The notes: generated by a model not told the origin, from the sequence alone. Counted from the stretch's first letter, positions 10,403 through 58,062 are shown. The stretch: 64,000 bases of DNA from an uncultured Gemmatimonadales bacterium (GCA_963707505.1 CAVPQB010000006.1:288001-352000); one strand, 5' to 3'. Translations and numbers: made by a program.

Positions 10403-10798
10403 GGGAGTGCCACCGGCTGGGCGGTCGCGAAATAGTATCTCAATGGTACTATTCCGAGGAAAGTCCGGGCTCCATGGACACACTGCCAGGTAACACCTGG
10501 GCACGAGGCGGTCAAACGCCAAGTGACGGACAGTGCAACAGAAAACAAACCGCCGGCGGGAAACCATCGGTAAGGGTGAAACGGCGAGGTAAGAGCTCAC
10601 CGCGTACGTGGTAACACGTACGGCTTGGCAAACCCCAGTGGGAGCAAGGCCAAATAGGCGGCGAAGGGTGTCCACCCTGACAAAGACGCCGCGGGTAGGC
10701 TGCTGGAACGCGTGGGTGACTACGCGTCGAGAGAAATGACCGTCAGCCAGTCGAAAGGCTTGGCTTACAGAACCCGGCTTATAGGCCGGTGGCACCTC
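10403..10798 (+). ncRNA. rnpB: RNase P RNA (type A)
   Basis: GAGGAAAGTCCGGGCTC, AGTGCAACAGAAA, GGGTGAAACGG, ACAGAACCCGGCTTA conserved segments; P1 pairing GTGCCACCGGC/GCCGGTGGCAC; -10-like TAGATT at 10395. Confidence 0.97.
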
Positions 10799-10815
10799 TC
10801 GCACTTCAAGGTCCG

Positions 10816-11613
10816 ATGATGAAACTGAGCGGGATGGCGAGCATATTGGGCACCGTGTTCATGGCTGCATGCGTGTCCGCTCCGCCAGCAATTGAGCCAA
10901 CACCAGCAAACAGGCCTGAAGTCAATCCGGCTCAGCCGAAGTCGCAACCCGCGCCAACAGCTCCCGCACTTCCAGCACGCATGTCACGAGGTGGCCCGTG
11001 GAGTTTCACGTACGCGCCAGGGACTTACGCATACACGATCGTTACCGACGCTGTCATTGCACTGGCTCTCGATACGACACAGAAACGGCAGATTCCAGAG
11101 CTGAGTCAGAAAGCAACGATCTCTCTTTCCGCGTCGGGCGACTTACAGGTAGTAGATCCAGTTCCTGGTACTACCGCGTTGTGTGACAGCAGCTCTGCGT
11201 TGATAACACGCGCCCAGGAACTCATCTCAAAGTTGCCCAATCAGCTGGCAGTCGGCGATCGGTGGCGGGACTCAACAACTACGACAGGGTGCAGGGGGAC
11301 CATTCCAGCCGAGTCAACCGTAATCAGTAATTACATCGTCGTTGGAGACACAGCTTTCGCAAATACTGTAGCGCTTCAGATACATCGTACAGATTCCCTA
11401 TCCGCAACCGGCGAGGGGACTGAAGGGCAACATCGAATCATCGTTACCGCAACTGGAACTGGCGGAATGGATCTCTTCCTGGACACTGCCGCCGGCAGAT
11501 TGCTTGGCTCCCGTGGACTTCAGACCAGTCTCGTGAATATCACTACGTCAGGAAAGCTGACGCAGTTCATTCAACACGTTACCGAAACAGCGACCATCGC
11601 CGGTCTTCGGTAA
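10816..11613 (+). CDS. Hypothetical lipoprotein, beta-rich
   Basis: FMAAC lipobox, Pro-rich linker; start placed downstream of the rnpB end. Confidence 0.65.
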   Translation: MMKLSGMASILGTVFMAACVSAPPAIEPTPANRPEVNPAQPKSQPAPTAPALPARMSRGGPWSFTYAPGTYAYTIVTDAVIALALDTTQKRQIPELSQKATISLSASGDLQVVDPVPGTTALCDSSSALITRAQELISKLPNQLAVGDRWRDSTTTTGCRGTIPAESTVISNYIVVGDTAFANTVALQIHRTDSLSATGEGTEGQHRIIVTATGTGGMDLFLDTAAGRLLGSRGLQTSLVNITTSGKLTQFIQHVTETATIAGLR

Positions 11614-11616
11614 GAC

Positions 11617-12729
11617 TCAATCCATCAATCGTAGCGGCATTACGAGGCACATATACGTCGCCGGATCGGTCCAGCCTTCTGGTTCAATCGTGGCGGCGCG
11701 CTCTGGTGCTTTGAACGTGAGCTTGATCTCATCAGTCGGCATGAAGCGCAGGATCTCGAGCAGATAGCTTGCGTTGAATCCAATCTCCAACTGATCACCG
11801 TCGTAGCGAATCGGAAGTTCATCCTGTGCTTCGCCGAGATCCGGAGTCGTAACGCTGAACTTGAGCATTCCGGAATTGAAGGCCATGCGGATTCTGTGCG
11901 TCTGATCGCTGGCGATCACTGACATGCGCTTCAGCGCACTGATCAACGCATTCTTGTCGGCTATGGCGTACTTGTCGTTGTCGCGAGGAATTACCTGATC
12001 GTAGTTGGGGTAGGGCCCTTCGATCAGGCGCGTGTATACGGCAGTGAGTGGTGAGCGAAAACCGATGTGATTCTCTCCACGTGCAACTTCCAGTTCCTCT
12101 TCAGCTGGAAAAAGACGGCGTACCTGCTCCAACGCCTTCGGTGGAACAATCAGATCGCTAGCCGGCGCGCTACTCGCAACAATCGGGGTTTCCATCTTCG
12201 CGAGACGATGACCGTTGGTGGCAACCATCCGCATCTGCTCCGGGCGAAGCTCCCAGAGCACACCATTCAGGATCGGTCGGCTCTCCTCAGTTGAAACAGC
12301 AAATACGGTCGCACCGATGAGCTTCTGAAGATCACCTGACTTGATACGCCAGCTCTCGTTGAAACGAACAACGGGAAAAGTCGGAAATTCATCTCTCGGA
12401 AGGCCGAGCAATTTGAATTTCGATCGACCGCACTCGAGTGTGATCCGCTGCTCGCCGAGAGCTGCAATTTTCACTGGCGCAGGCGGTAACTCACGGGCGA
12501 GCTCGCTCAGTTTTTTCGCTGGAATCGTAACAGCACCCGAAGCTTCGACGTCAGCCGCGACTTCGGTGCTCACGGCTATATCCAGATCGGTCCCAGAAAG
12601 CCTTATACCGCGGTCAGTTGTCTCGACCAGGATATTCGCCAGAACCGGGAGAGTTGTCTTCGTGGGAATGCTTGCCGAGACGGCATTGAGGCCTTCCTGA
12701 AGCTTCTCACGAGAGATCGTAAAGCGCAT
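11617..12729 (-). CDS. dnaN: DNA polymerase III beta sliding clamp
   Basis: MRFTI start, ATNGHRL, LIEGPYPNY, C-terminal LVMPLR; 370 aa. Confidence 0.99.
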   Translation of the reverse strand: MRFTISREKLQEGLNAVSASIPTKTTLPVLANILVETTDRGIRLSGTDLDIAVSTEVAADVEASGAVTIPAKKLSELARELPPAPVKIAALGEQRITLECGRSKFKLLGLPRDEFPTFPVVRFNESWRIKSGDLQKLIGATVFAVSTEESRPILNGVLWELRPEQMRMVATNGHRLAKMETPIVASSAPASDLIVPPKALEQVRRLFPAEEELEVARGENHIGFRSPLTAVYTRLIEGPYPNYDQVIPRDNDKYAIADKNALISALKRMSVIASDQTHRIRMAFNSGMLKFSVTTPDLGEAQDELPIRYDGDQLEIGFNASYLLEILRFMPTDEIKLTFKAPERAATIEPEGWTDPATYMCLVMPLRLMD

Positions 12730-13027
12730 CCGTATTCCCTGACGTCCGAGGAGGAGAGTAAACGTACCATGTCGCTTGTCCGGGGTCTTCGTGTGGAAGA
12801 CTCGCCGGCTCTAATACAGCCTAAATGATATAGAAATCTAGCAGTCGTAGTAGAGGAGTGTTCAGAAGCGGATAAGCTCTGTAAGTATCGATTCCATATG
12901 GAGTTCCAGCGATATGACGCTGTGGAACACTGGTGGAGAACATTTGATTTCAACAATTGTCAACATCGAACCTTTCCAACTAACGGCTTCGTGTCTTGAT
13001 ATAAGTGGATAAGTGGCAAGCGTTTGT
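12730..13027. other. Probable oriC (dnaA-dnaN intergenic region)
   Basis: Co-oriented degenerate DnaA boxes at 12792, 12867, 12921, 12932, 13004; trio-like TAG CAG TCG TAG TAG at 12839-12853 next to an AT-rich tract (12811-12840). Confidence 0.8.
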
Positions 13028-14431
13028 TCATATCCTGAGAGATGCCAACAGTCCACGAATCCGACTGATTCTCGTTCCCGTACCTGCGTCTGCGGCGATC
13101 ATCTCGGTGACTTTATCCAGGCTATGAATTACGGTCGAATGGTCTCTACCTCCGAAAGCCGCGCCAATCTCTACAAGCTGCATGCCGAGAAGGTCACGCG
13201 TCAGGTACATCGCAATCTGCCTGGGCACCGTGAGTGCCTTGGTTCGCGTCTTCGACCGCAATCCGTCGACTGTGGTTCCCCACTCCTTTGCAACAGCAAC
13301 CTGAATTGCGCTGACTGTAAGACCAAGTGGCTCTGTATCAGCCGTTATGCTCTCGGAAGCTTTGAGCTTGTCCCGTAAGGCTTCCTTGGCAACCTCGACG
13401 CTTACCGGTTTGTGTCGGAGCGACGCATAAGCCAGGAGCTTGATAATGGACCCTTCGAGCTCGCGAACACTCGACCGCACGTGCTCGGCGATAAAGCGGA
13501 TAACATCATCCGGGATCGTGGTTTCGAGATCATCCTGTTGAGATTTTTGCTGAAGGATCGCGATTCTGTGCTCGAAATCGGGAAGCTCGATATCAGCGAC
13601 CATACCCCACTGGAATCGGCTTACAAGTCTGGCCTCGAGTCCCGCTATGTCAGACGGAGGACGATCGCTCGTGAGGATTATCTGACGACCGGCCTCGTAA
13701 AGGGCGTTGAACGTGTGAAAGAACTCCTCCTGAGTGCCCTCCTTTCCCTTCAGGAAGTGCACGTCGTCGATGAGAAGAAGATCGGTCTCGCGATAACGGC
13801 GCCGGAACTCGTGATTGGTCCGAGTCTGGATTGCGTTGACCATTTCGTTGGTGAACTGCTCGGTGCCGACGAAGGTGATGCGGGTGGAAGGATCGCGTTC
13901 GTAGATAGCATGCCCCACCGCCTGCATGAGATGGGTCTTTCCGAGGCCGGTATCGCCGTAGATGAAAAACGGGTTGTAGATCTTTCCGGGCGCCTCAGCG
14001 ATTGCGTGTGCGGCAGCAGCAGCGAGCTCGTTCGATTTGCCGATTACAAATTGCGCGAACGTGTATCTATCGTTAAGTGGCGCCTCGGTGGCGCGTTGAG
14101 GTCGCGATCGTGTCGCAGTTTCTTCGGGCTTTGGGGCCACGAAGAAGTCCATTTGAGGGCGAGCCTGTCGCTCTTCGTTGACGCGGAATGCGACTTTGAT
14201 TGGATGGCCGAGGGCAACTGGTCCAAACGAGCTCAGCAAGGCTGCGTGTTTTGACTCGTTCCAATCAGCTGCGAAGCGGTCGGGGGCTCCGACTACGAGT
14301 GTATCGCCGATTATTTCGAGAGCTTCGGTCGGTTCGAGCCAGGTTTTGAAGGTTTGTTCGGGCAACTCGCGCCGAGCGCGCTCCAGAAGGCGTGACCAGA
14401 TTTCGGCGGGGAGAAGATCGAGCGATTCCAT
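13028..14431 (-). CDS. dnaA: Chromosomal replication initiator DnaA
   Basis: YNPFFIYGDTGLGKTHL, QEEFFHTFN, RELEG, GGRDHSTVIH. Confidence 0.99.
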   Translation of the reverse strand: MESLDLLPAEIWSRLLERARRELPEQTFKTWLEPTEALEIIGDTLVVGAPDRFAADWNESKHAALLSSFGPVALGHPIKVAFRVNEERQARPQMDFFVAPKPEETATRSRPQRATEAPLNDRYTFAQFVIGKSNELAAAAAHAIAEAPGKIYNPFFIYGDTGLGKTHLMQAVGHAIYERDPSTRITFVGTEQFTNEMVNAIQTRTNHEFRRRYRETDLLLIDDVHFLKGKEGTQEEFFHTFNALYEAGRQIILTSDRPPSDIAGLEARLVSRFQWGMVADIELPDFEHRIAILQQKSQQDDLETTIPDDVIRFIAEHVRSSVRELEGSIIKLLAYASLRHKPVSVEVAKEALRDKLKASESITADTEPLGLTVSAIQVAVAKEWGTTVDGLRSKTRTKALTVPRQIAMYLTRDLLGMQLVEIGAAFGGRDHSTVIHSLDKVTEMIAADAGTGTRISRIRGLLASLRI

Positions 14432-14460
14432 ATGGTGGGGAGGCGAAGCTACGGAACGAA

Positions 14461-14469
14461 TGTGGATAA
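14461..14469 (-). promoter_or_regulatory. Perfect DnaA box (TTATCCACA) upstream of dnaA
   Basis: TGTGGATAA on the + strand, 30 bp upstream of the dnaA start. Confidence 0.8.
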
Positions 14470-14609
14470 GTCAATCACCGGCGTTCAAGGGTCTGGATCC
14501 ATGGTGAGCCGGCACATTTACGCTATTGTTGCATCTTGTTGCCGCCATTAGATTTAACGGTCTTTCGCTAAAGTTGTTCAAGAGCCGTTTAGAGCACTGA
14601 GGATCATAT

Positions 14610-14774
14610 ATGGGTAAGCCGACTTATCGTCCGCGTAATAAGCGCCGGATCAAGACGCATGGGTTTCGCGAGCGTATGTCAACGCGTTGGGGACGTGAAG
14701 TACTCGCGCGTCGTCGCAAGAAGGGTCGCAAGCGCCTGACGGTTCAGTTGCCGTCGAAGTACTCTGGCGCGTAA
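14610..14774 (+). CDS. rpmH: 50S ribosomal protein L34 (not in the ORF track)
   Basis: Manual translation [54 protein letters not shown]; divergent from dnaA. Confidence 0.97.
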
Positions 14775-14881
14775 GCAAGCGAAGTACGCAGCCGGCTGAC
14801 AGGTCGCAGCACGCACCTGCAGACGAGGCGGGAGGGAGGGGTCTTCGGCTTTCGAACTCAACGGCACAACCAACGTCGCAT

Positions 14882-15223
14882 TTGAGGTTTTCGCGCGCGC
14901 AGCGTTTATCGCGCGCGCCGGATATCGAGTCCGTCAGGCGAACGGGGAAGCGGGTGAAGTCTGGACTGCTGGACGTCCGGGTCACTGCTTCCCCGTCTTC
15001 GTGTGCGCGGGTTGGGATCATTGTGCCGAAGTATGGGCACATCATTGTCGATCGGAACCGGCTTCGGCGGCGCATACGGGAGATAGTGCGTGTGCACGTG
15101 CTTCCGGTGCTGTTGTCGGTGCCGCCGACGGACGTGCTGATCCGCGCGCTTCCGCGGGCCTATTCGGCTAGCTTTGAGGTGCTGGAGCGGGAGATAGATG
15201 GGATTGTCGCACGAATCACATGA
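14882..15223 (+). CDS. rnpA: RNase P protein component
   Basis: [25 protein letters not shown] (RNR motif); synteny. Confidence 0.93.
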
Positions 15224-15530
15224 CGGTCAGGAGGCGAATGCGCATCTTCACGAGCATCCGTCCGATGGCCATCATGGACTGAAGAAAGATCGAGCTTTGA
15301 CGGATCGCAGGCGGTCTGTGGCAATGTGGATGCTACGCGGACCGATCCGATTCTATCAGCTCGCCATATCGCCAATGACGCCGTCCGTATGTCGTTACTA
15401 TCCCAGTTGCTCCAATTATGCGATCGAGGCCATCGACAAGTACGGTGCCTTGAAAGGCGGGTGGCTGGCGATACGGCGCATACTGAGATGTCATCCTTTT
15501 CGGCCGGGCGGCTTCGATCCGGTCCCTTGA
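15198..15530 (+). CDS. yidD: Membrane protein insertion efficiency factor (start uncertain)
   Basis: [18 protein letters not shown], [17 protein letters not shown]. Confidence 0.93.
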
Positions 15531-15544
15531 GCTCGCACTGATTC

Positions 15545-17306
15545 ATGGATACAAGCAAGCGAATCGTTCTCGCCATCGTACTGGCCCTGGCGGTCATCTT
15601 TGGAATGCAGTTTCTATTTCCCCAGAAACCTCAGCCCAAGCCAGTTAGTAGCGCCGACAGCGCTGCGGTACACAATTCGGCAGAGAGCGCAAAGGTAAGC
15701 GCCAACACGCCGAGGATCGATTCGACAAAGGCTGCAGCGGTAATTCCTGGAGCGGCCGCTCAATCGGTTCCAGCCACAGCTGCCGAAACAACGATTGTTG
15801 CGCCTGTCGCTGCGCGGCGGGATAGTGGCGCGACCTTCGAAATGAGCAACGTTGGGGCTGCGCCTGGTGCGGTGGTGATGAATACGTACGCTAACCGTGT
15901 CGGTGGCAGCAACGGCGCGAAGGTGCGACTGGGCTCCGCGGGCAATCCGGTGCTTAAGTACCAATTAGTTACTAATGGTGGCCAGCCGACCGATCTATCT
16001 GGAACTGCATTTCAGACGACACGGTCCGGGGACGTTGTCACGTACACTGCGGACGTGGGTGGCTCGACAGTCGCGATCAATTACGCGATAGTGCCGGACA
16101 GCTTTGTATCGCATGTCACTGGTTCTGTGAGTGGCGCGAAGTCGGGGAGCTATCTCGTCGTTACGCTGCCGCAGACTTTTGCGGCGACGGAGCCGGACAC
16201 GAACGACGACCGCAACTCGCTTGCGTTCGCATTCCTCACCAAGCGTGAAGCTGCGCGGAACGTCTCGTTCCATTCGCTCGATCCTGGCGAGAAGCAGCTG
16301 GTAGAAGGGCCGGTGACGTGGATCGTGGCCAAGTCGAAGTATTTCGTTGTCGGGACTGCTGGCACCGAAGAATGGGCCGGAATTTACCGAGGCAACGCTC
16401 ATCGGCGGGCCGCGCACGACCAAGGTCGCGACGCGCGCTACGGGAACGGTGGTGATACCGATAGCGAATGGTGCGTTCGCGTTCGACATGTATGCGGGCC
16501 CGCAGGAGTGGAAGAAGCTCAACGCACTTGGCCGCGACTTCGATCAGGTGAATCCGTACGGATGGGCGTTCGTGCGGCCGCTGATGCAACCGATTGCGAC
16601 ATCGGTGATTCGTCTGGTGCTGTGGATGCACAGCGCGCTCAATCTGAGCTATGGACTGGTTCTCATCGCGCTCGGGCTTCTAATCCGGTTGTTGATGTGG
16701 CCGTTGTATCAGACATCGATGAAGACGTCGATCAAGATGCAGATCCTGCAGCCGGAGCTGACGGCGGTGCAGGACAAGTTCAAGGACGATCCGGAGAAGC
16801 AGCGGACTGAAATCATGAAGGTGTACCAGAGCCACGGGATGAATCCGCTCTCGCCGTTGCTCGGGTGTCTTCCTTCGCTGTTGCCGATGCCGATTCTGCT
16901 CGCGCTGTTCTTCGTGTTCAGGAACACGATCGAATTTCGCGGAGTTCCGTTCTGGTGGATGAGCGATCTATCGGTGCGGGATCCGTACTACATCCTTCCG
17001 TTGCTGATGGGTGCGTCGATGTATCTCATCTCGTGGATGGGAATGCGGAACACGCCGCCGAATCCGCAGGCGAAGATGATGAGCTACATAATGCCGGCGA
17101 TGTTCACGCTCTTCCTTTACAGGGAGGCAGCTGGACTCAACCTGTATTACGCGACGCAGAACCTTGCGACTCTGCCGCAGCAGTGGCATCTGTCGCGTAC
17201 GCGCGGGATGAGCAAGCCAAAGACTGGTGCGGCGGCCAAGGAAGTCGCAGCACCGTCGGCGCCGCCGGCGGCGAAGGGAAAGGCAAAGGCAAAGGATAAG
17301 GGGTAG
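15545..17306 (+). CDS. yidC: Membrane protein insertase YidC; one apparent frameshift near 16352 (extra G)
   Basis: N-terminal TM and periplasmic domain in ORF 15545; LQPEL, GCLP, WMSDLSVRDPYYILP in ORF 16347; removing one G in GTCGGGACTG joins the frames. Confidence 0.93.
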
Positions 17307-17340
17307 CATCGATCGGCGCGTGGTTGATGTAGGTTAAGGG

Positions 17341-18120
17341 ATGCGGATCACGTACATCGGGCATGCGACTCTGCTGATCGAGATCGGTGGGAAGAAGATT
17401 CTCACCGACCCCAATTTCGATCCAGCGCTGGGGCGATTTCTGGCTCGGGTGAGTGCGCCGGGGATTGCAATCGACAAGCTGCCGAAGCTGGACATGATTC
17501 TGCTGACGCACGCACATGCTGATCACCTGTCGTTCCGGTCGCTGGCGGAGATTCAGCGCGTGCCGTTATATGCCCCACCTGCCGTTGCGCGGTGGATCCG
17601 CAAGCATGGTGTGACAAACGCAATCGAACTGGGGCCTGGCGAGTCGCTTACGAGCGGCAGCCTCACGGTGCACGTGGAAGCGGCGACGCATGCTGGTAAC
17701 CGGTACGTGATAGATCGGTGGCGCAAGCAAGCTAATATGTATCTAATTGCTACTAATTATGAGAGCGTGTTCTTCGCTGGCGATACTGCGCTTACGGAGA
17801 ATACGACTGCGCTCGTGGAGCGAGAGCAGAAGGGGCGCCAGCTGGACGTCGCGCTGCTCCCGATTGGGTACGCACCAGCGTGGAAGGCCGAGAGCTTCAA
17901 TAGAGGCCATCTTACGAGCCTGGGCGCGCTAACGCTGTTCGAGCGATTAGGCGCACGGTATCTGATTCCGTACCACTGGGGGACGTTCAACCATGTGACT
18001 GCGTCGGCGTACGACGCGATAGGTGAAATGCGGGAGCACGTCAGGACACACGCGCGTGGCACCGACGTGCGCATTCTCGAGCCCGGTGAGTCCCTACAAG
18101 TGCCGTCGCTGTCTGCTTGA
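17341..18120 (+). CDS. MBL-fold metallo-hydrolase (UlaG/RomA-like)
   Basis: THAHADH, FAGDT, LPIG, PYHWGTF. Confidence 0.9.
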   Translation: MRITYIGHATLLIEIGGKKILTDPNFDPALGRFLARVSAPGIAIDKLPKLDMILLTHAHADHLSFRSLAEIQRVPLYAPPAVARWIRKHGVTNAIELGPGESLTSGSLTVHVEAATHAGNRYVIDRWRKQANMYLIATNYESVFFAGDTALTENTTALVEREQKGRQLDVALLPIGYAPAWKAESFNRGHLTSLGALTLFERLGARYLIPYHWGTFNHVTASAYDAIGEMREHVRTHARGTDVRILEPGESLQVPSLSA

Positions 18121-19454
18121 GTAGCGGCGAAGACGATACGATCGCGGCGGAGGCGACGGCTCACGGAAGGGGCGCCATCGCCGTGATTCGCGTTTCCGGA
18201 CCGGCCGCGTTCACGATCGTGAAGCGTCATGTAGCAACGTGGCCGGAAAATCAGCGCCAGGCAACGTTATGCACCATACGAGACGGGAATGGTGACGTGC
18301 TGGACGAGGCGCTTGTCACGACGTTCATAGCGCCGGCATCGTTTACCGGCGAGGATGTGGTCGAGATCGCCACGCACGGCGGCACGATAGTACCGACGCT
18401 CGTGCTGGCAGCGCTCGTTGCCTCGGGGGCGCGTGTTGCGCTACCGGGTGAATTTACGCGGCGGGCGGTATTGAACGGTAAGCTCGATCTGGTACAGGCA
18501 GAGGCGATCGGGGATCTCATCGATTCCACTTCACACGCGATGCAGCGAGTGGCGATGACGCAGCTCGACGGCGGCTTGTCGCGGCGGATCGAGGAGCTAC
18601 GGGACCGAGTGATCGGTCTGGAATCGCTGATTGCATACGACATCGACTTTCCCGAAGAGGACGACGGACCAATTCCGAAGTCGAGGATTACTGTTGCGAC
18701 GGAAAGTGTCATCGTATCGTTGAACGATCTACTCGCGACGGCACCGGCGGGAGAGCTGGTGCGGAATGGAGCGCTGGTCGTGATCGCGGGTGCACCAAAT
18801 GCGGGGAAGTCATCACTGTTCAATGCGATGCTGGGCCGGTCGCGTGCTATCGTCACCGAGATCCCCGGGACGACCCGGGACGCGATCGAAGCTGTGCTCG
18901 ATGTCGGACCCTGGCCGGTTCGATTGGTGGATACGGCGGGGTTGCGCGAAACGACGGACGTCGTCGAGCGGCTTGGGATCGAGGTGGCAACGCGGTATCT
19001 CGCATCGGCAGACGCCGTGCTCGCATGCGGTGACAGTGCCGACGACGTGTCACGGACAACTGCCGCTGTATCACAGCTGACGGACGCGCCAGTGATTCCG
19101 GTGCGGACGAAAAGCGATCTCTCGCCATCTGCCGAACCAAACATGGTGAGCGCAACGACTGGACAGGGTATACGCGAGCTTCTCGATACGGTTGCCGGAG
19201 CGGTATCGGAGCGTTATGGAAGAGCGCCACTGGATGCTCCCATCCTTACACGAGAGCGGCAACGTTTTTGTGTGGAACAGGCACGCGAGGAGATGGTCGC
19301 TTTTGCGGCTGCGATTGAAGATGAAGGGTTGCCGGCGTCGGTCGCGGCGGTGCATCTTCGCAGTGCTGTCAACGCGCTGGCAGACGTAACTGGCACAATC
19401 GACGTGGAGGACGTCCTGGATCGTCTCTTCCGAACGTTCTGCGTGGGCAAATGA
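18117..19454 (+). CDS. mnmE: tRNA modification GTPase MnmE/TrmE
   Basis: SFTGEDVVE, GEFTRRA, GAPNAGKSS, PGTTRD, DTAG, C-terminal FCVGK. Confidence 0.98.
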   Translation: MSSGEDDTIAAEATAHGRGAIAVIRVSGPAAFTIVKRHVATWPENQRQATLCTIRDGNGDVLDEALVTTFIAPASFTGEDVVEIATHGGTIVPTLVLAALVASGARVALPGEFTRRAVLNGKLDLVQAEAIGDLIDSTSHAMQRVAMTQLDGGLSRRIEELRDRVIGLESLIAYDIDFPEEDDGPIPKSRITVATESVIVSLNDLLATAPAGELVRNGALVVIAGAPNAGKSSLFNAMLGRSRAIVTEIPGTTRDAIEAVLDVGPWPVRLVDTAGLRETTDVVERLGIEVATRYLASADAVLACGDSADDVSRTTAAVSQLTDAPVIPVRTKSDLSPSAEPNMVSATTGQGIRELLDTVAGAVSERYGRAPLDAPILTRERQRFCVEQAREEMVAFAAAIEDEGLPASVAAVHLRSAVNALADVTGTIDVEDVLDRLFRTFCVGK

Positions 19455-21265: not shown

Positions 21266-22613
21266 TTTCCAGATAGCGATTGATCAGAGCCGCGGTCATG
21301 CCTCTCGGTGCTGTATCGAGGACTGCGACTCCGGCCTGACGCATGATCTGAAGCGCTTCATCCCGTGCTGAGAGAAGCTCCTCCGCCGCGGCGCTCTCGT
21401 AGGTCTGCTCATCGCTGGCATCTGGCGACGGAACGGATGCCAGGACCAGTTGCTCGTTCCGCAAGGCGACAACCAGCGGAAGATGGCGCTCGGCGCTTCG
21501 TGCGGTCAGCGCTATCACGGCACGTGAGGAACGGACGTCTATCACGTCGGTGAAGAGGACAATGAGTGAGCGACGCCGATTGCGCTCGGTGAGGGTACGG
21601 AATGCGGCTGCGTAATCCGGTTCTGTCATCGTTGCCGTGACGCCGGTCAATGCGTCCCGGAGCGCACCGAGGGTGCCTGGGGCGCGTGTCGGCGCGATGT
21701 AACGGCGGACAAGCGAGTCGAAGACGATCAGACCGACGCGATCGCCGGTGGAGAGAGCGATGTCCGCAAGAGTCAGTGCTGACGCGAGAGCGTACTCGAA
21801 GCGCGGCCTGTCGCCTGCGAGCTGAGTCATCATTCTGCCGCAGTCGATCGCAATCATGATGGTCTGGCCCTGCTCCACCGTGAACTCGCGCGAGATGAGG
21901 CGGTGACGACGTGCGGTGGCCTTCCAGTCGATGCGACGTGGGTCATCGCCCGGTACATAGTCGCGGAGATTGGCGAACGATGTTCCTGCACCACGCCGGC
22001 GTATCACACGCTGGCCCGCGGTTCTCACCCGGTGTTGCGCAGCGAGGAGACGATAACGACCGGCGTTAGCCATTGACGGGATTATCGAAATAGTATCATT
22101 TAGATAATAAATCACCGACCGCCGGACGAGCTTCCATGGGCCACGGATGGTGATTGCAACCGGGCCAAGTGCGAACGTGCCGCGAGATCGTCCTGTAATC
22201 GTCAGATCGGCGAGGAGTGGGCTATCCGGGCCGACTTCCATCTTGTTTGCGTGAAGGTTGGCGGCAACGAGTGCTGAGGGGAGTTGTTGAGTCATGAAGA
22301 CACTCAGTGCGGCAGGCCACGACGACGTGATCGTGTAGCTTCCCGATCTGCTGTCACCGACACCAATCGTGGCCGGGAAATCACGCGTCAGTTCCACGTA
22401 ACGTGCGCCGGGAATCCGTAGCGCATCGACAAGGACTGCGATCGCGATGATTGCGACTACTGCAGTCGCGGTTGCCTGACCAGCCGTGCTCGAGGAAAGA
22501 ATCCAGGCCGGTGCAGCTATCGCTACCACCAATGCCAGTCTCGGCGTCGGAGCGTATCTCGCGAGTGACCGCAATGGCTGGGTGATACGGCCGAACAGCC
22601 GCGAAAAAATCAC
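21243..22613 (-). CDS. DUF58 / vWA-like protein
   Basis: LRDYVPGDDPRRIDWKATAR, IDCGRMM, VLFTD. Confidence 0.9.
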   Translation of the reverse strand: MIFSRLFGRITQPLRSLARYAPTPRLALVVAIAAPAWILSSSTAGQATATAVVAIIAIAVLVDALRIPGARYVELTRDFPATIGVGDSRSGSYTITSSWPAALSVFMTQQLPSALVAANLHANKMEVGPDSPLLADLTITGRSRGTFALGPVAITIRGPWKLVRRSVIYYLNDTISIIPSMANAGRYRLLAAQHRVRTAGQRVIRRRGAGTSFANLRDYVPGDDPRRIDWKATARRHRLISREFTVEQGQTIMIAIDCGRMMTQLAGDRPRFEYALASALTLADIALSTGDRVGLIVFDSLVRRYIAPTRAPGTLGALRDALTGVTATMTEPDYAAAFRTLTERNRRRSLIVLFTDVIDVRSSRAVIALTARSAERHLPLVVALRNEQLVLASVPSPDASDEQTYESAAAEELLSARDEALQIMRQAGVAVLDTAPRGMTAALINRYLEIKERSTL

Positions 22614-24881: not shown

Positions 24882-25537
24882 TGCCTGACGCCGGACGCAG
24901 TATTACCGGCAGCGTCCACAGCAGCATTCGCAGCGGATTTCGATGGAAAGGCCGTTAAGAGGTTACCTGCCAGAGCATTGAGAGTAGTGAAGCGGTCTCT
25001 GTCACATGTGCCAATGCCGTAGATCACCGTTTCGTACGAGCGTGTGAAGTCGGTGAAGCGCGGCAGGTCGATCGCGTCTGGTTTTCTGCGAAGCTCGCGA
25101 AGGTAATCGCCTGTGGTCTTGGATTCGTGGAGAGATACGAGTCCGCGGCGTGCGACTGCCCCAATGAGCGCGAGATAGAGAGCGTGCGCTGCGCCGGTAT
25201 AGTCGTTATGTGCGGCGAGCGTCTGTGCGGTGGTCCACCAATCAGTGCGGCGGTCGGACTCGAACCGCCGCAATCCGATTGCGGATGGTGCGAAACGGGC
25301 GACGAGGCCGTACACGATTCGAGCGAGTACGACCAGCAAGGCCAATCCGAGGGCGATGCGAAACACGATGCCGACCGCTGGGTGACTCTGGGCAAAGCCG
25401 AAGAATCGAAGAACCAGATTCCATATCCACTCTGCGATCAGCTCGCTGATGGAAACAGTGCCGCGGCCGGCAAAGGTGCTGCTGCGGAAGACGGCGGCGA
25501 CTGTATCCGCGATCGCGGCGTTATCGAAGGGACCCAT
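24878..25537 (-). CDS. DUF4129-domain membrane protein
   Basis: TM followed by AHALY, KTTGDY, YETVIYG; MoxR-cluster context. Confidence 0.75.
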   Translation of the reverse strand: MGPFDNAAIADTVAAVFRSSTFAGRGTVSISELIAEWIWNLVLRFFGFAQSHPAVGIVFRIALGLALLVVLARIVYGLVARFAPSAIGLRRFESDRRTDWWTTAQTLAAHNDYTGAAHALYLALIGAVARRGLVSLHESKTTGDYLRELRRKPDAIDLPRFTDFTRSYETVIYGIGTCDRDRFTTLNALAGNLLTAFPSKSAANAAVDAAGNTASGVRQ

Positions 25538-25564
25538 TAGTATCGAATAGATACTAATCTTGAA

Positions 25565-29010: not shown

Positions 29011-29046
29011 CCGATCCCACCAATTAGTACCCAATAGACACTAAAT

Positions 29047-45611: not shown

Positions 45612-45640
45612 TCTTCGCTCCGCGAAATTAGATTTTGGGC

Positions 45641-48020: not shown

Positions 48021-48024
48021 GCGC

Positions 48025-50622: not shown

Positions 50623-51125
50623 ATAGCATGACCATCGATGATTCCAGATCAGTCGCGTTGCGTACGGTCGCAGCTACCGTCGCAGTCACGATTCTCACAC
50701 TGTTCGCTGCATGCTCGAAGGGAGACGGCACCAAGACGGCGTTCGACGCTGGCATGGCGCGTCCTGATACCTATCCGATCATGCTGAACAAGGAGATGCC
50801 GTTCCGATATCCGCCAGCGTTGTACGCCGAGAAGGTGCAGGGCAACGTGACGTTGCGATTGTATGTGGACAAGGATGGATCGGTGATCGATGATTCGACA
50901 CGCGTGATCGAATCGTCCAGCATCGCACCGCTGGATTCAGCGGCGATCAAGGGGTCGCGCGAGCTCAAGTTCGTTCCCGCCAAGCTGCGCGGCACTCCGA
51001 TGCCGGTGTCGATCCTGTTCCCGGTATATTTCCGCCATCCAGACGCGCCGCCACCGCCGGGGGATTCCATTCTCAAGAAGAACGTCGCGGGCACTGATAG
51101 TGCGGCGAAGGGCCCCGCGAAATAG
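50619..51125 (+). CDS. TonB C-terminal-domain protein with lipobox-like signal
   Basis: YPPAL, VQGNV, SSIAPLDSAA, FVPA; LFAAC. Confidence 0.8.
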   Translation: MNSMTIDDSRSVALRTVAATVAVTILTLFAACSKGDGTKTAFDAGMARPDTYPIMLNKEMPFRYPPALYAEKVQGNVTLRLYVDKDGSVIDDSTRVIESSSIAPLDSAAIKGSRELKFVPAKLRGTPMPVSILFPVYFRHPDAPPPPGDSILKKNVAGTDSAAKGPAK

Positions 51126-51182
51126 GTCGCGTCAAAATGTCGCCACGCCCGGTAAGCAGGCGCAAATCGAGATAGTAGCAAT

Positions 51183-52581
51183 ATGTCAATAAAACGAAAC
51201 GAGCGGCCATACGACAACGTTCTCGAGACGATCGGGTGGACGCCTCTGATCCGGCTGCATCACGTGACGCGCGGAATCCGGACGCCGGTGTACGCCAAGG
51301 CTGAGTTCTTCAATCCCGGCGGATCGGTCAAGGATCGAATCGGGCTTCCGATCATCGAACGGGCGGAGCGGGAGGGAAAGCTCAAGCCGGGCGGAACGAT
51401 CGTCGAGGGCACGAGCGGCAACACCGGTGTCGGTCTCGCGATCGCCGCGGCGCTGCGCGGCTACAAGTGCATCTTCACGATGCCCGACAAGATGTCGCAG
51501 GAAAAGGTACGTCTGCTCAAGGCGTTCGGCGCGGAAGTGATCGTCACGCCGACCGCCGTTCGCACCGGATCATCCGGACAACTACGTGATGATGGCGAAG
51601 CGGATCGCGGAAGAGACGCCGAACGCGATCCTCGCGGATCAGTTCTACAACGAGGCCAACCCTGATGCGCACTACGCGACGACTGGTCCCGAGCTGTGGG
51701 AGCAGACCGAAGGAAAGATCACGCACTTCGTCGGCGTCGGCGGGAACAGGCGGTACGATCACCGGCGTCGGACGCTACCTCAAGGAGCGCAATCCCGAAG
51801 ATCAAGATCATTGCTGGCGATCCGACAGGCTCGATACTGGCCGAGTACTGGCGGAGCAATGGCGAGCACAAGATCGAGGGGAACGCCGTACAAGGTCGAG
51901 GGAATCGGGCAGGACAAGCTTCCCGGAACGCTCGACATGAGTGTGATCGACGAGTATCACACAGTGAGCGACAAGGACTCGTTCGCGATGGCGCGGCGGC
52001 TGACGCGCGAGGAAGGGCTTGTTCGTTGGCGGATCGTCGGGCTTCATCACGCACGTCGCTCTCAGATCGCGCGCGAGCTCGACGATCCGAACGCATTGGT
52101 CGTGACGATCCTGTGCGACACTGGCGAGCGATATCTCTCCAAGCTGTACAGCGACGAGTGGATGCGTGAGAACCAGATGCTCGAAGCCGACATGTCACGC
52201 TCGCCGACATGCTCGGCCGCAAGGATGCGAGTGCGCCGGCGAGTCGTGAGCGTCGCGCCGGCATCGAGGGTGCGGCAGGCCCTCGGTCTCATGGTGCTGC
52301 ACGACGTGTCGCAGCTTCCGGTGATGGATGGCGATGAGTGTGTTGGATCTGTCGTCGAGGCAACGTTGTCGCAACGGGGATTGGAAACACCGGCGTTGCT
52401 CGAAGCGACTGTACGCGAGGTGATGGATGCGCCGTTTCCGTCGCTGGCGAGCGATGAAGCGATCGAGTTTGCGGTGAAGCTGTTGTCAAAGAGTACGCCT
52501 GCTGTGCTGGTACATGATCATGGTCGTGTCGAAGGAATAGTTACGCGCTCGGACATGCTTCGCTTCATGATGGGGCGGTAG
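51183..52581 (+). CDS. Cystathionine beta-synthase-like PLP enzyme with C-terminal CBS domains; multiple apparent frameshifts
   Basis: NPGGSVKDR, TSGNTG, GTGGTITG (shifted frame), YKVEGIG, DTGERYLSK, CBS pair. Confidence 0.88.
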
Positions 52582-52586
52582 GAATC

Positions 52587-53606
<1,020 letters not shown>

Positions 53607-53629
53607 GACGAAAGGTCGCGCAGGGATCC

Positions 53630-54562
53630 ATGGAAACGTCAACCGAATTCAACGCAGCGGATTTTGAGCCTGGCGTCGGCATAACACCGGCGGTCCAGTG
53701 GCTCATCGCGCTCAACGCACTGGTTTATTTCATCCAGCTGACGTCGCCAGTCGGGACGGCGGACGTTGCGGCGTGGCTGGGTCTGTCGGCGACGGAGTTT
53801 CCCGCCCACTGGTGGGCGATCGGCACATACATGTTCGTACACGCGGGCTTTGCGCACATCGCGACGAACATGATCATGCTGTGGATGTTCGGCCCGCGCG
53901 TGGAACGCGCGTTCGGCTCGCGAGCGTTCACCTACTTCTATCTCTGGTGTGGTCTCGGCGGCGGAATATTCCACCTGCTGTTCGAGCAGCACAGTGGAGT
54001 GATCGGTGCATCCGGCGCGGTTGTCGGTGTAGTTCTCGCGTACGCGCTCAAGTGGCCCGACGACGAGGTCTACATACTCGGCGTCATGCCGATTCGCGCG
54101 GTGTGGCTCGCGGTGTGGACGATCGCGTGGAACGTGGGTATGGCGTTCGCGGACTTCACGGGATATTCCAGCGGCTCTGTCGCGTTCATGACGCACGTCG
54201 GCGGTCTCGTCTTCGCGTGGATCTATCTGCACGCACCGAATAGCTCGAGCTTCGACAAGATTCGCCGCCACGTTGCGACTGTGCCCGATGATTCCAATCC
54301 GCAGCCGATTCCCAAGATGCAGCGTCCGCAGAAGCGTCGCGACGGATTGCCAAGTGCGGATGAAGCGGTGGCGCGCAGTAACGCGATAGTGAAGCGGCGC
54401 CCGCAGACTCCGATGATATCGGCACCGAATCCGAATCCAAAACCGCGCGCGGAAGACGTGAATGGATTGCTGGACAAGATTTCCAGGGAAGGCATGGGGA
54501 GTTTGTCCGGTGACGAGCGAGCGCTGCTGCAGGAGATTTCGCGGAAGCTGCGCGGGTCATAA
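53630..54562 (+). CDS. Rhomboid intramembrane protease with C-terminal DUF6576-like helix
   Basis: HIATNM, GASG, HVGG; LLDKISREGMGSLS. Confidence 0.92.
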   Translation: METSTEFNAADFEPGVGITPAVQWLIALNALVYFIQLTSPVGTADVAAWLGLSATEFPAHWWAIGTYMFVHAGFAHIATNMIMLWMFGPRVERAFGSRAFTYFYLWCGLGGGIFHLLFEQHSGVIGASGAVVGVVLAYALKWPDDEVYILGVMPIRAVWLAVWTIAWNVGMAFADFTGYSSGSVAFMTHVGGLVFAWIYLHAPNSSSFDKIRRHVATVPDDSNPQPIPKMQRPQKRRDGLPSADEAVARSNAIVKRRPQTPMISAPNPNPKPRAEDVNGLLDKISREGMGSLSGDERALLQEISRKLRGS

Positions 54563-54607
54563 GAGCGAGCTTCATTGTGGCGCAGGCTGTCCAAAAGCTT
54601 GACATCT

Positions 54608-54674
54608 CCGCGAAAGCGGGAACTTCAAGACTCGTCATTCCCCGCAAAAACACTCCCCAGGACTCGTCATTCCC
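54608..54674 (+). repeat. Degenerate fragments of the REP family
   Basis: CCGCGAAAGCGGGAA at 54608; GACTCGTCATTCCC at 54629 and 54661. Confidence 0.65.
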
Positions 54675-54719
54675 GGTCTCCCGGGATTGTCATCGCGCTT
54701 GTCAAACTAGATTTGTAGC

Positions 54720-55130
54720 ATGCCAAAGCCACAACTGCTCGAAGTGTTTCCGAATCCTTACGCCGATCGGGACTATGAGATTCACATGGACTGTCCCGAG
54801 TTCACGTCGCTCTGTCCGCTTGGCGGGATCGAAGGCGATGCGAGTGATCTGACTGCACTCGAAGGCGGCGCTCCGGATTTCGCGACGATTCGAATCACGT
54901 ATTTTCCGGGAGATTCCTGCGTGGAGCTGAAGAGCCTCAAGCTCTATCTGTGGAGCTTCCGCAATGATGGGATCTTCTACGAGCGCGCGGTCAATCGAAT
55001 TCTGGATGATATCGTCGAGCGCGTGAAGCCGAAGTGGATGCGTGTTGTTGGTGATTTCAATCTGCGCGGCGGGATCAAGTCGGTGATCACGGCCTCCAAT
55101 GGAACCAGACCGGACACACGGAATCTCTGA
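54720..55130 (+). CDS. queF: preQ0 reductase QueF (type I)
   Basis: PEFTSLCP, PDFA, ELKSLKLY QueF motif, RGGI. Confidence 0.93.
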   Translation: MPKPQLLEVFPNPYADRDYEIHMDCPEFTSLCPLGGIEGDASDLTALEGGAPDFATIRITYFPGDSCVELKSLKLYLWSFRNDGIFYERAVNRILDDIVERVKPKWMRVVGDFNLRGGIKSVITASNGTRPDTRNL

Positions 55131-55136
55131 ACAGGA

Positions 55137-55649
55137 TTACATCGATCCAAGGGCGAGATCGGCACACGCGACGGGCGCGGTAGCAGACGCGGTAGTAGAC
55201 GCGGTAGCAGGCGTTGCGGGAGTCGCGACGACAGCGTAGGAAGCCGAAGGGGATAGTGTTTCCGGAATGGCGGCTTCGGCAGCGCCAGATCCATCTGCAT
55301 GGATGTTGAAGTCGGCGTATCTGTTGGTCGGACCAATGATGTTGCCCTGTGAGGCGCAACTGCCGGACCTGAGACTCCAGGCGTACGTTTCGCCCGCCAC
55401 ACTATTCTCGACCGAGATAAGGACGTGTGCCCATCCCGGAGTGGGGCTGGGCGTTACGGATGCAGCTCCGGCGATGCCAGCCGTTCCGGCACCATGTATG
55501 GCGCCGAGCCACAAGGGAGTTGGCTTGGGCGGCGGTAAAACGCCGAGTGTGTTGGGTGCATCGTAGGATTGGGCCGCGCACGCGGCACAGGCAGCTCCGA
55601 TCGCTGCTATGGCGGCAAAGTGACGAAGGACGTTGGAAACCGATGGCAT
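55137..55649 (-). CDS. Lipoprotein with Cu/Zn-SOD-like topology lacking the His ligands
   Basis: Lipobox-like CAAC; YAWSLRSGSC, DGSG, VACADL. Confidence 0.5.
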   Translation of the reverse strand: MPSVSNVLRHFAAIAAIGAACAACAAQSYDAPNTLGVLPPPKPTPLWLGAIHGAGTAGIAGAASVTPSPTPGWAHVLISVENSVAGETYAWSLRSGSCASQGNIIGPTNRYADFNIHADGSGAAEAAIPETLSPSASYAVVATPATPATASTTASATAPVACADLALGSM

Positions 55650-55725
55650 TTCGGCCAGATTAATGCAATTTCCGGGCACAGAGACCGCGACAGTCGCGTT
55701 GTCGATCAATTCAATTCAATTGTCA

Positions 55726-56109
55726 ATGCCATCCAGGTTTTTCGGACTACGCACCGTCATTTATCACGTGTCGGATCTACAGGCCGCGAAGCGATGGTAC
55801 GCGCTCGCGACGGGCATCGAGCCGTACTTCGACGAGTCATTCTACGTGGGCTTCAACATCGGTGGTTTCGAGCTGGGACTGGATCCGGATCCCGCGAGTG
55901 GCACGAGCGGAACCGGCGGGACGACGGCTTACTGGGGAGTGGAGAGTGTCGAGCGTGCTCTCGTGGATCTCGTCGGAGCAGGGGCAACGCTCAAGGCGCC
56001 GGCGACGGACGTCGGCGATGGGATTCGCGTAGCGATCGTGCTGGATCCATTCGGCAACGACCTGGGCGTCATAGAGAATCCACACTTCAAGCTGGTCGAC
56101 GTGGGCTGA
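55726..56109 (+). CDS. VOC/glyoxalase-family protein
   Basis: LRTVIYHVSDL, ELGLD, YWGV, DPFGN. Confidence 0.88.
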   Translation: MPSRFFGLRTVIYHVSDLQAAKRWYALATGIEPYFDESFYVGFNIGGFELGLDPDPASGTSGTGGTTAYWGVESVERALVDLVGAGATLKAPATDVGDGIRVAIVLDPFGNDLGVIENPHFKLVDVG

Positions 56110-56120
56110 CCATCGGTGTT

Positions 56121-57350
56121 CTAGCGCGCTTCTCCTGCCGTTCCAAACATCACTCCGTGCTTCTCCGGACCGAAGTACGTCAACACTGCAATCACCACGG
56201 CAGCGCACGCGGCGACAACCGCCAGCGCATACGCGTAGTTCCCGCCATGGCTCGCAGCAAACCCCGCCTGTAACGCGGCGTTCCCCGAGGCCAGCAGATT
56301 ACCAAGCTGATACGCGAAACCCGGGAAGGTTCCGCGCACCTCGTCCGGTGACAGCTCGTTGAGATGAACCGGAATCACGCCCCACGCTCCCTGCACGGCA
56401 ACCTGCATCAGGAACGCGCCGAGCCCAAGTAAAATCGGTGTCGCGCTGAACGCCCACAATGGTATGATCGGCAACGCGATCAGCGCTCCAAACACGATAG
56501 CCTTTCTTCGTCCGATGCGCTGCGACAGTGCACCAAACGCGAGACCACCGGTTATCGCCCCGACGTTGCCGATGATCGACACGATACTCACCGTGTGCGT
56601 CGTGAACTTGTGCTGGATCTGCAAGAAGGCCGGATACAGATCCTGTGTGCCGTGACTGAACAGATTGAACGCGGTCATGAGCACGACCACGTAGATGAAC
56701 AACGGCCAGCGCTTCTTCAACACGCTCATCAGACTCTGCGTCGGCCGCTCGCGCATCCTGTTCCACGCCGGCGATTCCTGCACATTGCGGCGAATGAACA
56801 ACACCAGCAACGCCGGCAACACGCCGACCATGAACATGCCGCGCCAGCCGATACGATCGAACAACAAGCCGTACACAACAGACGCGAGCAGATAACCGAA
56901 CGGATATCCAGTCTGAAGAATCCCCGACGCTATCCCGCGTGCCTTCGGTGGAATGGTCTCCATGGTGAGCGATGCGCCGAGTCCCCACTCGCCGCCCATC
57001 GCGAATCCGAATGCCGTACGCAACACCAGCAGTGCAACGATCGATGGTGCAAATGCCGACGCGAATTCCAGTATCGAGAACAGCAGGATATCGATCATCA
57101 ACACCGGTCTGCGGCCAAACCTGTCGGCCAACATCCCGAACACGAGGGCTCCAGCGGGGCGCGCAGCGAGCGTCAACGTTATCGCAACCGCGACGGCCTT
57201 GATATCAGTCCCGAACTCCTTCGCGATGGCGCCCAGCATGAACACCATGAGGAAGAAATCGAACGCGTCGAGAGTCCAGCCGAGGAAGCTCGCGATGAGC
57301 GCGCTCCGCTGGTTACGATCAAACTCCTTCCACTCGCTCATCACGCTCAT
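56121..57350 (-). CDS. MFS transporter, sialate:H+/carboxylate symporter (SHS)-like
   Basis: GWTLDAFDF, MGGEWG, NLFSHGTQDLYP, YQLGN; ATGA overlap with the upstream regulator. Confidence 0.9.
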   Translation of the reverse strand: MSVMSEWKEFDRNQRSALIASFLGWTLDAFDFFLMVFMLGAIAKEFGTDIKAVAVAITLTLAARPAGALVFGMLADRFGRRPVLMIDILLFSILEFASAFAPSIVALLVLRTAFGFAMGGEWGLGASLTMETIPPKARGIASGILQTGYPFGYLLASVVYGLLFDRIGWRGMFMVGVLPALLVLFIRRNVQESPAWNRMRERPTQSLMSVLKKRWPLFIYVVVLMTAFNLFSHGTQDLYPAFLQIQHKFTTHTVSIVSIIGNVGAITGGLAFGALSQRIGRRKAIVFGALIALPIIPLWAFSATPILLGLGAFLMQVAVQGAWGVIPVHLNELSPDEVRGTFPGFAYQLGNLLASGNAALQAGFAASHGGNYAYALAVVAACAAVVIAVLTYFGPEKHGVMFGTAGEAR

Positions 57351-58027
57351 CCGAGCAGGTCGAACCTCACTCCACGCCGTGCTCGGCGACGTTTTCTGGG
57401 ACCGTACCTGAAGAGTTGCGCTGGGCGGCCGCGACCCTCGCTGCGCCATTCATCGGTCGGCTCGACGAGCGCGGCGGCAGTGAGCGCGCGACGGAAGCTC
57501 GCCTTGTGCAGGCGCCGTCCAAGCAGCAGCTCGTACATGTGCTGCAGCTCGCTCAACGTGAACGTCGCCGGTAACAACTTGAAGGCGACCGGATACAGGT
57601 CCAACCGATCGCGGACAGCGTTCACGGACTCCTGCAGCATCTGACTCTGGCGCGCACTGAGCGGCGGAAGATCGCTCAGGAGAAACCACTGGAACTCATC
57701 ACCCTGCACCGTCGCCTCGCCCATTGGAACGAGCGCGACGTACACGATCGACAGATCGGATTCGCCAGGATGCGGACCGTCGCTGAAAGCGCCGACCTGT
57801 GTGCTCCAGATCGACGCGCCACCTGCGCTGCGCTTGATCGTGCGCTGTGCAAGATCGTCGAGCCCCTCGCCATTCCGCGACGCACTCCACGGAAGTACCC
57901 AGCGCACAGACTTCTCTCGACCTTCGCTGCGCTGCTCGAGCAACACCGCGAGCTGGTTGTCGCGTGGAGTAAGTGCGACTACGTCAACGGTGTAATGCTG
58001 ACGTTTCACCCGGGGCTCTCTGGTCAC
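57347..58027 (-). CDS. NrtR-family regulator (degenerate Nudix domain + winged HTH)
   Basis: TVDVV, VLL, WVLP Nudix fold with eroded box; LLPATFTLSELQHMYE, KASFRR, GRPAQLFRY wHTH; Arg-rich tail. Confidence 0.9.
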   Translation of the reverse strand: MTREPRVKRQHYTVDVVALTPRDNQLAVLLEQRSEGREKSVRWVLPWSASRNGEGLDDLAQRTIKRSAGGASIWSTQVGAFSDGPHPGESDLSIVYVALVPMGEATVQGDEFQWFLLSDLPPLSARQSQMLQESVNAVRDRLDLYPVAFKLLPATFTLSELQHMYELLLGRRLHKASFRRALTAAALVEPTDEWRSEGRGRPAQLFRYGPRKRRRARRGVRFDLLG

Positions 58028-58032
58028 GCAGC

Positions 58033-58062
58033 ATATTAGTCACATATTGTAACTAATGTCAA
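58033..58062 (-). promoter_or_regulatory. Sigma70 promoter of the NrtR-like gene with overlapping 23-bp palindromic operator (58035-58057)
   Basis: TTGACA-N18-TAATAT, 5 nt before GTG; ATTAGTCACATATTGTAACTAAT covers the spacer. Confidence 0.8.

Follow-up and report, generated by a model that had tools for sequence, protein, structure and literature searches.

Why should a palindrome that lies over the promoter of one regulatory gene recur around a replication origin, often inside genes of other kinds? The question is raised by a 64,000-nucleotide stretch of DNA (hereafter the window) from an uncultured Gemmatimonadales bacterium (GCA_963707505.1, CAVPQB010000006.1:288001-352000; G000:C6:288001-352000 in our numbering of genomes and contigs), whose assembly comprises 3.66 Mb in six contigs and is 83% complete. 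The first-pass annotation of the window had reported nine copies of a 23-bp palindrome, matched them to the operator of an NrtR-like protein encoded in the same window, and proposed a chromosome-organising system. Here we find that the array is genuine, under selection, linked to the nrtR-like gene and, across much of the Gemmatimonadaceae, a family of soil and water bacteria, centred on dnaA. As to its role, we moderately favour the reading, drawn from sequence comparison, that this autoregulated NrtR/AraR-family protein marks the origin domain and would have a chromosomal job.

The palindrome and its array in one genome

The window contains the origin, as judged from dnaA, the cumulative GC-skew minimum of contig C6 (window position 12645) and parAB, which lie 20 kb from dnaA, to the left of the window. 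All nine 23-mers were found where they had been reported, letter for letter (Table 1), with G5, T6, C9, G15, A18, T20 and A21 invariant among them; the consensus is the 23-bp palindrome WTTAGT-MD-C-N5-G-HK-ACTAAW. The two exact copies of ATTAGT-N11-ACTAAT, at 25536 and 58035, are the sole two in the whole 3.66-Mb assembly. Scored by leave-one-out, the nine sites reached 19-33 bits, and for none of them did more than 13 positions in the genome score as high or higher. When a matrix was built from 72 sites of relatives, none from G000 and some orthologous to G000 sites, it found 14 sites of at least 18 bits in the assembly, and 11 of these fall at C6:273671-346035, no more than 50 kb from dnaA, in a zone that makes up 2.7% of the genome (binomial p 6e-14 leaving out the promoter site). 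At 15 bits or more, G000 has 19 matches, where 30 palindromic matrices with permuted columns gave a mean of 1.5 (maximum 6); near dnaA the comparison is 11 against 0.1 (maximum 1). A reading of the motif as a -10 element was ruled out, as position 8 varies.

Two parts of the original description hold within limits. A frequency of one site per 7 kb is correct near the origin but not genome-wide, 11 of the 14 strong sites lying in 73 kb; and of the nine copies, said to be mostly inside genes, five are intragenic, three stand at start codons and one at the nrtR promoter.

The intragenic copies are spelled by rare synonymous codons, and identical peptides use these codons only where the site is kept. 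Given the peptide and the codon usage of the genome, each mid-gene site would be expected by chance with a probability between 7e-5 and 2e-7; these positions were picked post hoc, and a regional control therefore matters. In 100 synonymous resamplings of 88 kb of local coding sequence, 0.11 sites (maximum 1) were found on average, against five in the real sequence, which answers the call for a codon-shuffled control in favour of the array. Four of the five mid-gene sites score no more than 0.7 bits below the best score that synonymous change could reach.

The NrtR-like gene and its motif

The NrtR-like protein has 226 residues, an N-terminal Nudix fold and a C-terminal winged helix-turn-helix, and its gene gives the sole NrtR_WHD match in the assembly. 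Its structure model resembles AraR (TM 0.83) more than SoNrtR (TM 0.74), and against the NCBIfam equivalog NF050029 the protein scores 75.1 bits, below the 400-bit mark. Close homologues of it carry the labels Gemmatimonadaceae or Gemmatimonadota.

The operator at 58035..58057 occupies the spacer between -35 and -10 of a sigma-70-like promoter, which stops 6 bases before the GTG start, and the mRNA is probably leaderless. Of 50 family loci, 49 have a site of at least 15 bits upstream of the gene, mostly centred at -18 to -22; among the 27 loci that did not contribute to the training set the figure is 26. All 80 named loci, a set that overlaps the 50, have one as well. This geometry points to negative feedback through the site over the gene's own promoter. 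In 12 of the 80 named loci a second site lies 60-170 bases beyond the nrtR stop, as also in L022, L024 and L116-L130, and bracketing of the gene by operators in such loci could allow looping.

A matrix built from 21 nrtR-promoter sites alone, G000's included, gives 18 matches, among them all 11 origin sites. The four unpublished genomes G007, G017, G043 and G060 are part of the promoter-site set and of the counts, and no conclusion is drawn from them alone. Motif and gene also travel together. Among 80 family genomes, each at least 95% complete, 57 of the 64 with the gene have a pattern match, versus 2 of the 16 without it; these 16 hold two matches in total, and a reversed-pattern control gives 15. 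In a sample of the phylum, gene and motif occur together in the same 21 of 26 family genomes, and outside the family a single match was found in 2 of 74 genomes (control, 7). In a seven-protein tree of the 26, the five gene-less family genomes of this sample are scattered over at least three positions, which marks at least three separate losses, and their dnaA regions contain no site; one of them, G058, has no sites, and its sister G096 has 23.

The spacing of the outer half-sites, AGT-N11-ACT, is that of the AraR operator (PMC4666351). The GT-N7-AC core of the roughly 21-bp family pattern is replaced here by MD-C-N5-G-HK in a 23-bp site, and operator motifs are described as variable within the NrtR family (PMC2330246). 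The recognition helix differs as well: it reads HKASFRR, invariant in 50 of 50 orthologues, where other NrtRs have DKRNFR(R/K). Promoter position, co-occurrence and AraR-type geometry thus bear out the original identification of the motif as the operator of this protein, and they strongly imply that the protein binds it.

The degeneracy of the Nudix domain, emphasised in the first-pass annotation, is there in the form of a broken signature. This alone is no sign of repurposing, as broken signatures are common among NrtR proteins (PMC2330246); the informative change is the loss of ligand residues. The effector pocket of AraR is taken as R34, G47-G48-F49, R86 and H131. Across the 50 orthologues (AraR numbering), Arg34 is kept in 13, R86 is found in 28, Trp replaces Gly47 in 48, His replaces Asp87 in 49, Arg replaces Asp130 in 49 and Gln replaces His131 in 39. 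In a sequence-level comparison of 114 of 150 distant representatives, the 58 proteins outside the clade keep AraR pocket residues in 34-43 cases (F49 in 24 of 58). Binding by the NrtR-like protein is therefore probably not released by ADP-ribose or pentose effectors. The pocket replacements are themselves conserved, and a new ligand or a partner surface is therefore possible.

A membrane anchor in the C-terminal tail was also considered, and is unsupported by the predicted model and by comparison of tails: a tail motif is found in 35 of 56 proteins in the clade versus 4 of 58 outside, with similar basic content.

Position, host genes and turnover across the family

Plotted against distance from dnaA, site density peaks within 10 kb and has dropped tenfold by 50 kb. 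In the first five 10-kb bins the density per 100 kb is 12.6, 7.9, 5.9, 4.0 and 4.3, and about 1 thereafter, pooled over 18 nrtR-positive regions with orthologous sites counted repeatedly in a conserved oriC gene order; the peak lies on both flanks of dnaA. Of the matches away from nrtR in 22 genomes, 49 of 94 lie within 60 kb of dnaA versus 2.8 expected, the genomes being assemblies of at most 60 contigs with full match lists, a selection of such genomes in which kin are not independent. With one genome per genus the figure is 33 of 74 versus 2.1 expected. Eight family genomes outside the training set have 3-15 sites per dnaA region.

The nrtR gene itself usually lies 44-122 kb from dnaA. A clustering of the sites around the regulator gene, and not around oriC, is ruled out by three genomes. 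In G012, where nrtR is 140 kb away, a 2.96-Mb contig carries 9 of the 11 other matches no farther than 45 kb from dnaA; in G020 the array is at dnaA and nrtR is 167 kb distant; and in G094 the dnaA contig carries all 15 matches, spread between -214 and +323 kb. One comparison that might have spoken on distance does not discriminate: a gene that in G005 lies 68 kb from dnaA and carries a site is without one at 177 kb in G000, and orthologues near dnaA also lack lineage-specific sites.

The genes that carry the sites are exchanged between lineages. When 117 sites were sorted by context, mid-gene positions accounted for 56 (as far as 2.2 kb from a start), start-proximal ones for 31 and convergent gaps for 8, with 5 at nrtR and the remaining 17 other or uncalled, compared with a background, from a simple gene caller, of 79% mid-gene, 14% start-proximal, 1.3% convergent and 5% other. 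The polA peptide ELVTIRDDL is encoded as a site in G094, G114 and G074, and not in gene-less G058 or in G000; overall the polA site is present in 7 of 17 nrtR-positive rows of the comparison versus 0 of 8 nrtR-negative rows, and the mutS site in 8 of 16 versus 0 of 7. None of the seven regions of genus g1 has a mutS or polA site; instead, sites are found there in ddl (7), DUF58 (6), the gene at C6:273466 (6) and yidC (5). The same split by gene presence holds for yidC (5 of 11 nrtR-positive versus 0 of 3 nrtR-negative rows), the metallo-beta-lactamase-fold (MBL) gene (9 of 11 versus 0 of 3) and ddl (7 of 13, all in genus g1, versus 0 of 6); the DUF58 site is present in 6 of 7 rows, all of genus g1. 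The RNase P RNA site is found in 8 of 18 nrtR-positive versus 0 of 8 nrtR-negative regions, with an arbitrary hairpin in its place elsewhere. We take the hairpin concerned, the first variable one of this RNA, to be P3. At the cbs start the site of G000 recurs in G012. The constant feature is closeness to oriC, not the host gene.

Table 1. Features of the window and strong sites elsewhere in G000. Window coordinates unless a contig is given; P, chance of the site given the peptide and codon usage.
Feature	Position	Strand	Remarks
Site in nrtR-like promoter	58035..58057		in -35/-10 spacer
Site ahead of DUF4129	25536..25558		in 28-base gap, touches start; strongest dispersed site; place shared by 6 genomes
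Site at beta-CASP gene	29023..29045		13 bases upstream of start; 5 genomes
Site at cbs	51171..51193		centred on start codon
Site in RNase P RNA	10431..10453		forms first variable hairpin
Site within yidC	15954..15976		gene frameshift-split in assembly; P 7e-5
Site within MBL gene	17735..17757		at +405; P 3e-6; maximal score for peptide
Site within DUF58 gene	22089..22111		P 2e-6
Site within ddl	53365..53387		P 2e-7
Strong site left of window	G000:C6:273671		mid-gene
Strong site left of window	G000:C6:278537		intergenic
Strong sites on other contigs (3 of 14)	C1:73501, C4:66325, C2:109932		
dnaA	13028..14431	-	array centre; density peak within 10 kb
NrtR/AraR-family gene	57347..58027	-	226 aa, Nudix-fold domain and winged HTH; Pfam NrtR_WHD, E 6e-22
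Sigma-70-like promoter of nrtR-like gene	58033..58062	-	TTGACA-18-TAATAT; consensus match only, 1 vs 0.2 in shuffles
GH3 glycosidase, upstream neighbour	58114..59889	-	same strand in 43/43 loci showing it (43/50 loci)
RNase P RNA, class A	10409..10797	+	host of one site; Rfam RF00010, 289.5 bits

Some further observations concern the origin region and the distal sites. G+C content is 0.58-0.59 around the origin (G000:C6:260000-340000) and 0.61-0.62 on both flanks. Two adjacent DnaA boxes stand directly after parB (G000:C6:282333-282351), 19 kb from dnaA, and a single exact box lies close to dnaA at window position 14461. In the window yidC (15545-17306) and cbs (51183-52581) are split and the start of ddl (52854-53606) is shortened, where relatives have whole genes; these breaks are probably assembly indels. 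Away from the origin, the sites at C4:66325, C1:73501 and C2:149649 have look-alikes in several genomes of genus g1, the first being mid-gene with a synonymous P of 1e-10. A weak conserved site at G000:C3:709855, also present at G012:C3:2578646, lies between a Lys/Arg-rich histone-like open reading frame and a dehydrogenase-like gene, and is possibly a true distal target. A weak pair, at G000:C6:487526 and 487569, lies at the end of what is presumably a LigD-like gene, and five relatives have a similar site about 1.1 kb from nrtR.

Possible roles of the array

How might such an array work? In the mechanism that we propose, a Gemmatimonadaceae-specific dimer of the NrtR/AraR family would bind the 23-bp palindrome, and the copy over its own -35/-10 spacer would set the protein level by negative feedback. 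The other copies, about ten per genome in the clade and densest at oriC, would count by place and not by gene, and would have settled where sequence is cheap: in synonymous codons, start regions, convergent gaps and a free RNA hairpin. The bound array may then act on the origin domain, either as a boundary or roadblock to ParB/SMC traffic or through compaction, tethering or positioning. The system would be accessory, in that several lineages lost gene and sites and others keep the gene with few sites. The fuller version of this proposal is one on which we are evenly divided: that a repressor once serving as a metabolic sensor was repurposed as a self-limiting organiser of the origin domain in most Gemmatimonadaceae, with its sites in synonymous codons, amino-acid choices and the RNase P hairpin, and that in this role it may back up a parS that has diverged and may respond to a new ligand (W47, H86, R126). 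Of the roles first suggested, that of origin-domain organiser is the best reading; occlusion of the SlmA or Noc type and global regulation did not stand for this genome, 3 of 14 strong sites lying outside the origin region.

Several observations weigh against this origin-domain reading. The gradient was pooled with the repeated counting described above. Only 3 of the 23 matches in G096 are on the dnaA contig, with the rest on 16 contigs and mostly mid-gene; the high-GC relatives G063, G059, G082, G088 and G109 carry the gene and have no match near dnaA; G024 has no match in 38 kb; 3 of 9 other matches in G057 are near dnaA; G000 has three strong distal sites, and some distal sites are conserved; and 7 of the 64 gene-bearing genomes are without any match. 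Start-proximal sites are twofold enriched (31 of 112 versus 14%), and 24 of 36 sites precede a first gene or a long gap, both of which fit repression. The predicted model of the protein has neither an extra coiled coil nor a long amphipathic anchor, its C-terminal tail is short (a 4-residue terminal helix, pLDDT 55-65), and other NrtRs likewise end in basic or hydrophobic tails.

Repression is the core of the first alternative, an ordinary or roadblock regulon, which we consider unlikely. The protein would repress housekeeping genes near oriC (beta-CASP, DUF4129, cbs, the parAB/mnmG region, rnpB and its own operon), with mid-gene sites as roadblocks or looping partners. Such a regulon would account for the classic autorepression geometry, for the doubling of start-proximal sites over background, for the recurrence of sites before parA/mnmG in several genomes and for the second sites past the nrtR end, which could loop. 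It sits poorly with targets that are functionally unrelated and differ between lineages (mutS/polA versus yidC/DUF58/ddl in genus g1), with half of the sites being mid-gene and with a fivefold enrichment in convergent gaps, and it gives no reason for a gradient that peaks at dnaA. A metabolic regulon in particular finds no footing at the NAD genes located or at GH3, in agreement with the first-pass annotation: the nearest matches of at least 12 bits are 23 kb from nadE (C4:286031) and 42 kb from nadA (C4:352348), NAPRTase was not found in G000, and no operator precedes the GH3 gene, where the best upstream score is at most 1.2 bits in 4 of 4 cases. A GH3 homologue is also retained in 5 of 5 nrtR-negative genomes (42-59%). 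Control of sugar genes through GH3 is thus ruled out, GH3 being upstream on the same strand, siteless and able to outlive nrtR.

Somewhat less probable again is titration timed by replication, in which origin decoys double at initiation and draw the repressor off its promoter and a few distal targets, so as to produce a pulse in the cell cycle. Such a scheme would suit a repressor that is autoregulated, apparently blind to ligand and provided with decoys in about the same number as targets; a decoy role is recognised for intragenic sites (PMC9934606), and conserved distal promoter-like sites exist (G000:C3:709855). Early replication, as we infer, would nonetheless need proximity of a few hundred kb and not a 10-kb peak, and nrtR, at its usual distance from dnaA, would itself double almost at once.

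We give little credence to the idea that the protein acts directly on initiation, or on division over the origin through an effect on FtsZ akin to nucleoid occlusion or RefZ. The density peak flanks dnaA on both sides, RefZ offers the precedent of a regulator-family protein with oriC-referenced sites (10.1101/459685), and the broader spreads in G094 (+/-320 kb) and G096 would be at home here. Against it, the dnaA-dnaN and dnaA-rpmH gaps of G000 contain no site, and SlmA sites number dozens over the chromosome except ter, compared with 11 in 73 kb.

That another protein binds the motif, be it a co-inherited regulator or ParB with the motif as a non-canonical parS, is very improbable. Its appeal is that G000 has no canonical parS within two mismatches of the consensus. 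The genome nevertheless keeps two variant parS in tandem, their right half altered, 211 and 235 bases before parA (about C6:280260-280290), common to G003, G005 and G020, and G012 and G096 carry other variants; in ten nrtR-positive regions the array and a strong canonical parS are both present; and the recognition helix of ParB does not differ between genomes that have the motif and genomes that lack it. These points rule the motif out as a non-canonical parS, and the motif follows nrtR, not GH3. In six genomes a site does stand no more than about 1 kb from parS, and G096 has its sites beside a variant parS.

Neutral drift of intragenic sites in a slightly AT-richer origin region (0.58 near oriC versus 0.61-0.62), for which one might cite the mostly inert, unconserved intragenic PhoB sites (PMC9934606), is almost certainly wrong, given the 0.1 matches near dnaA with permuted matrices, the 0.11 versus 5 on codon resampling, the confinement of rare codons in identical peptides to places that retain the site and the absence of sites once the gene is lost.

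Returning to the origin-domain reading, the array can be set beside known systems. Within its own family the NrtR-like protein shares with BtAraR and SoNrtR the Nudix fold with winged helix-turn-helix, the outer operator spacing and the broken signature (PMC2330246, PMC4666351); it departs from them in operator core, recognition helix and ligand residues, and in sites placed around oriC and in genes, not before NAD or pentose genes. RacA of Bacillus subtilis likewise has a winged helix-turn-helix and palindromes that flank oriC and lie within coding sequences (PMC4914108); its 25 ram sites are GC-rich, 14 bp long and spread over about 600 kb (cited in 10.64898/2026.03.06.710092), its coiled coil binds DivIVA and it works in sporulation only, whereas the model here has no coiled coil, and no homology is expected. 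RicO of Staphylococcus aureus resembles the present case in that its nine ricS sites surround oriC, with one ahead of RicO's own gene and parS close by, and in being accessory to SMC/ParB (10.64898/2026.03.06.710092); ricS is non-palindromic, intergenic and spread over about 700 kb, and RicO, as described there, has a coiled coil and an amphipathic helix and lacks autoregulation. RefZ and SlmA (10.1101/459685) are also regulator-family proteins with position-defined palindromes, those of RefZ conserved in position relative to oriC, but both belong to the TetR family, with five RBMs at arm boundaries for RefZ and SBS by the dozen, everywhere except ter, for SlmA. ParB also uses palindromes near oriC, with the differences that the 16-bp parS is separate or variant here and that motif and protein are others. 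What the array shares with RacA, RicO and RefZ is a position relative to oriC that is conserved over gene identity (exceptions G096, G063, G059, G082, G088 and G109), and the predicted model has no anchor or self-association module of their type; the distribution typical of SlmA and Noc, dozens of sites except at the terminus, is not that of G000, with 14 strong sites and 11 of them in 73 kb.

Our literature search found no paper that joins Gemmatimonad and NrtR and, in titles and the beginnings of abstracts, no origin array belonging to an NrtR protein; the motif could be contained in subscription papers, RegPrecise or supplements, which lay outside the search. DNA-binding proteins that organise the origin have been described in a few model species of Firmicutes and Proteobacteria, and are mutually unrelated. 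If the origin-domain reading is true, this protein would be one more such organiser, from a third regulator family after the TetR-type SlmA and RefZ, in a phylum that is abundant in soil and has an unstudied chromosome cycle. Intragenic sites, of which those of PhoB are mostly unconserved and inert (PMC9934606), are by default viewed as noise; the array runs counter to that view, and offers an exceptionally clear instance, found in nature, of selection on intragenic sites for chromosomal position, complete with gains, losses and gene-loss controls.

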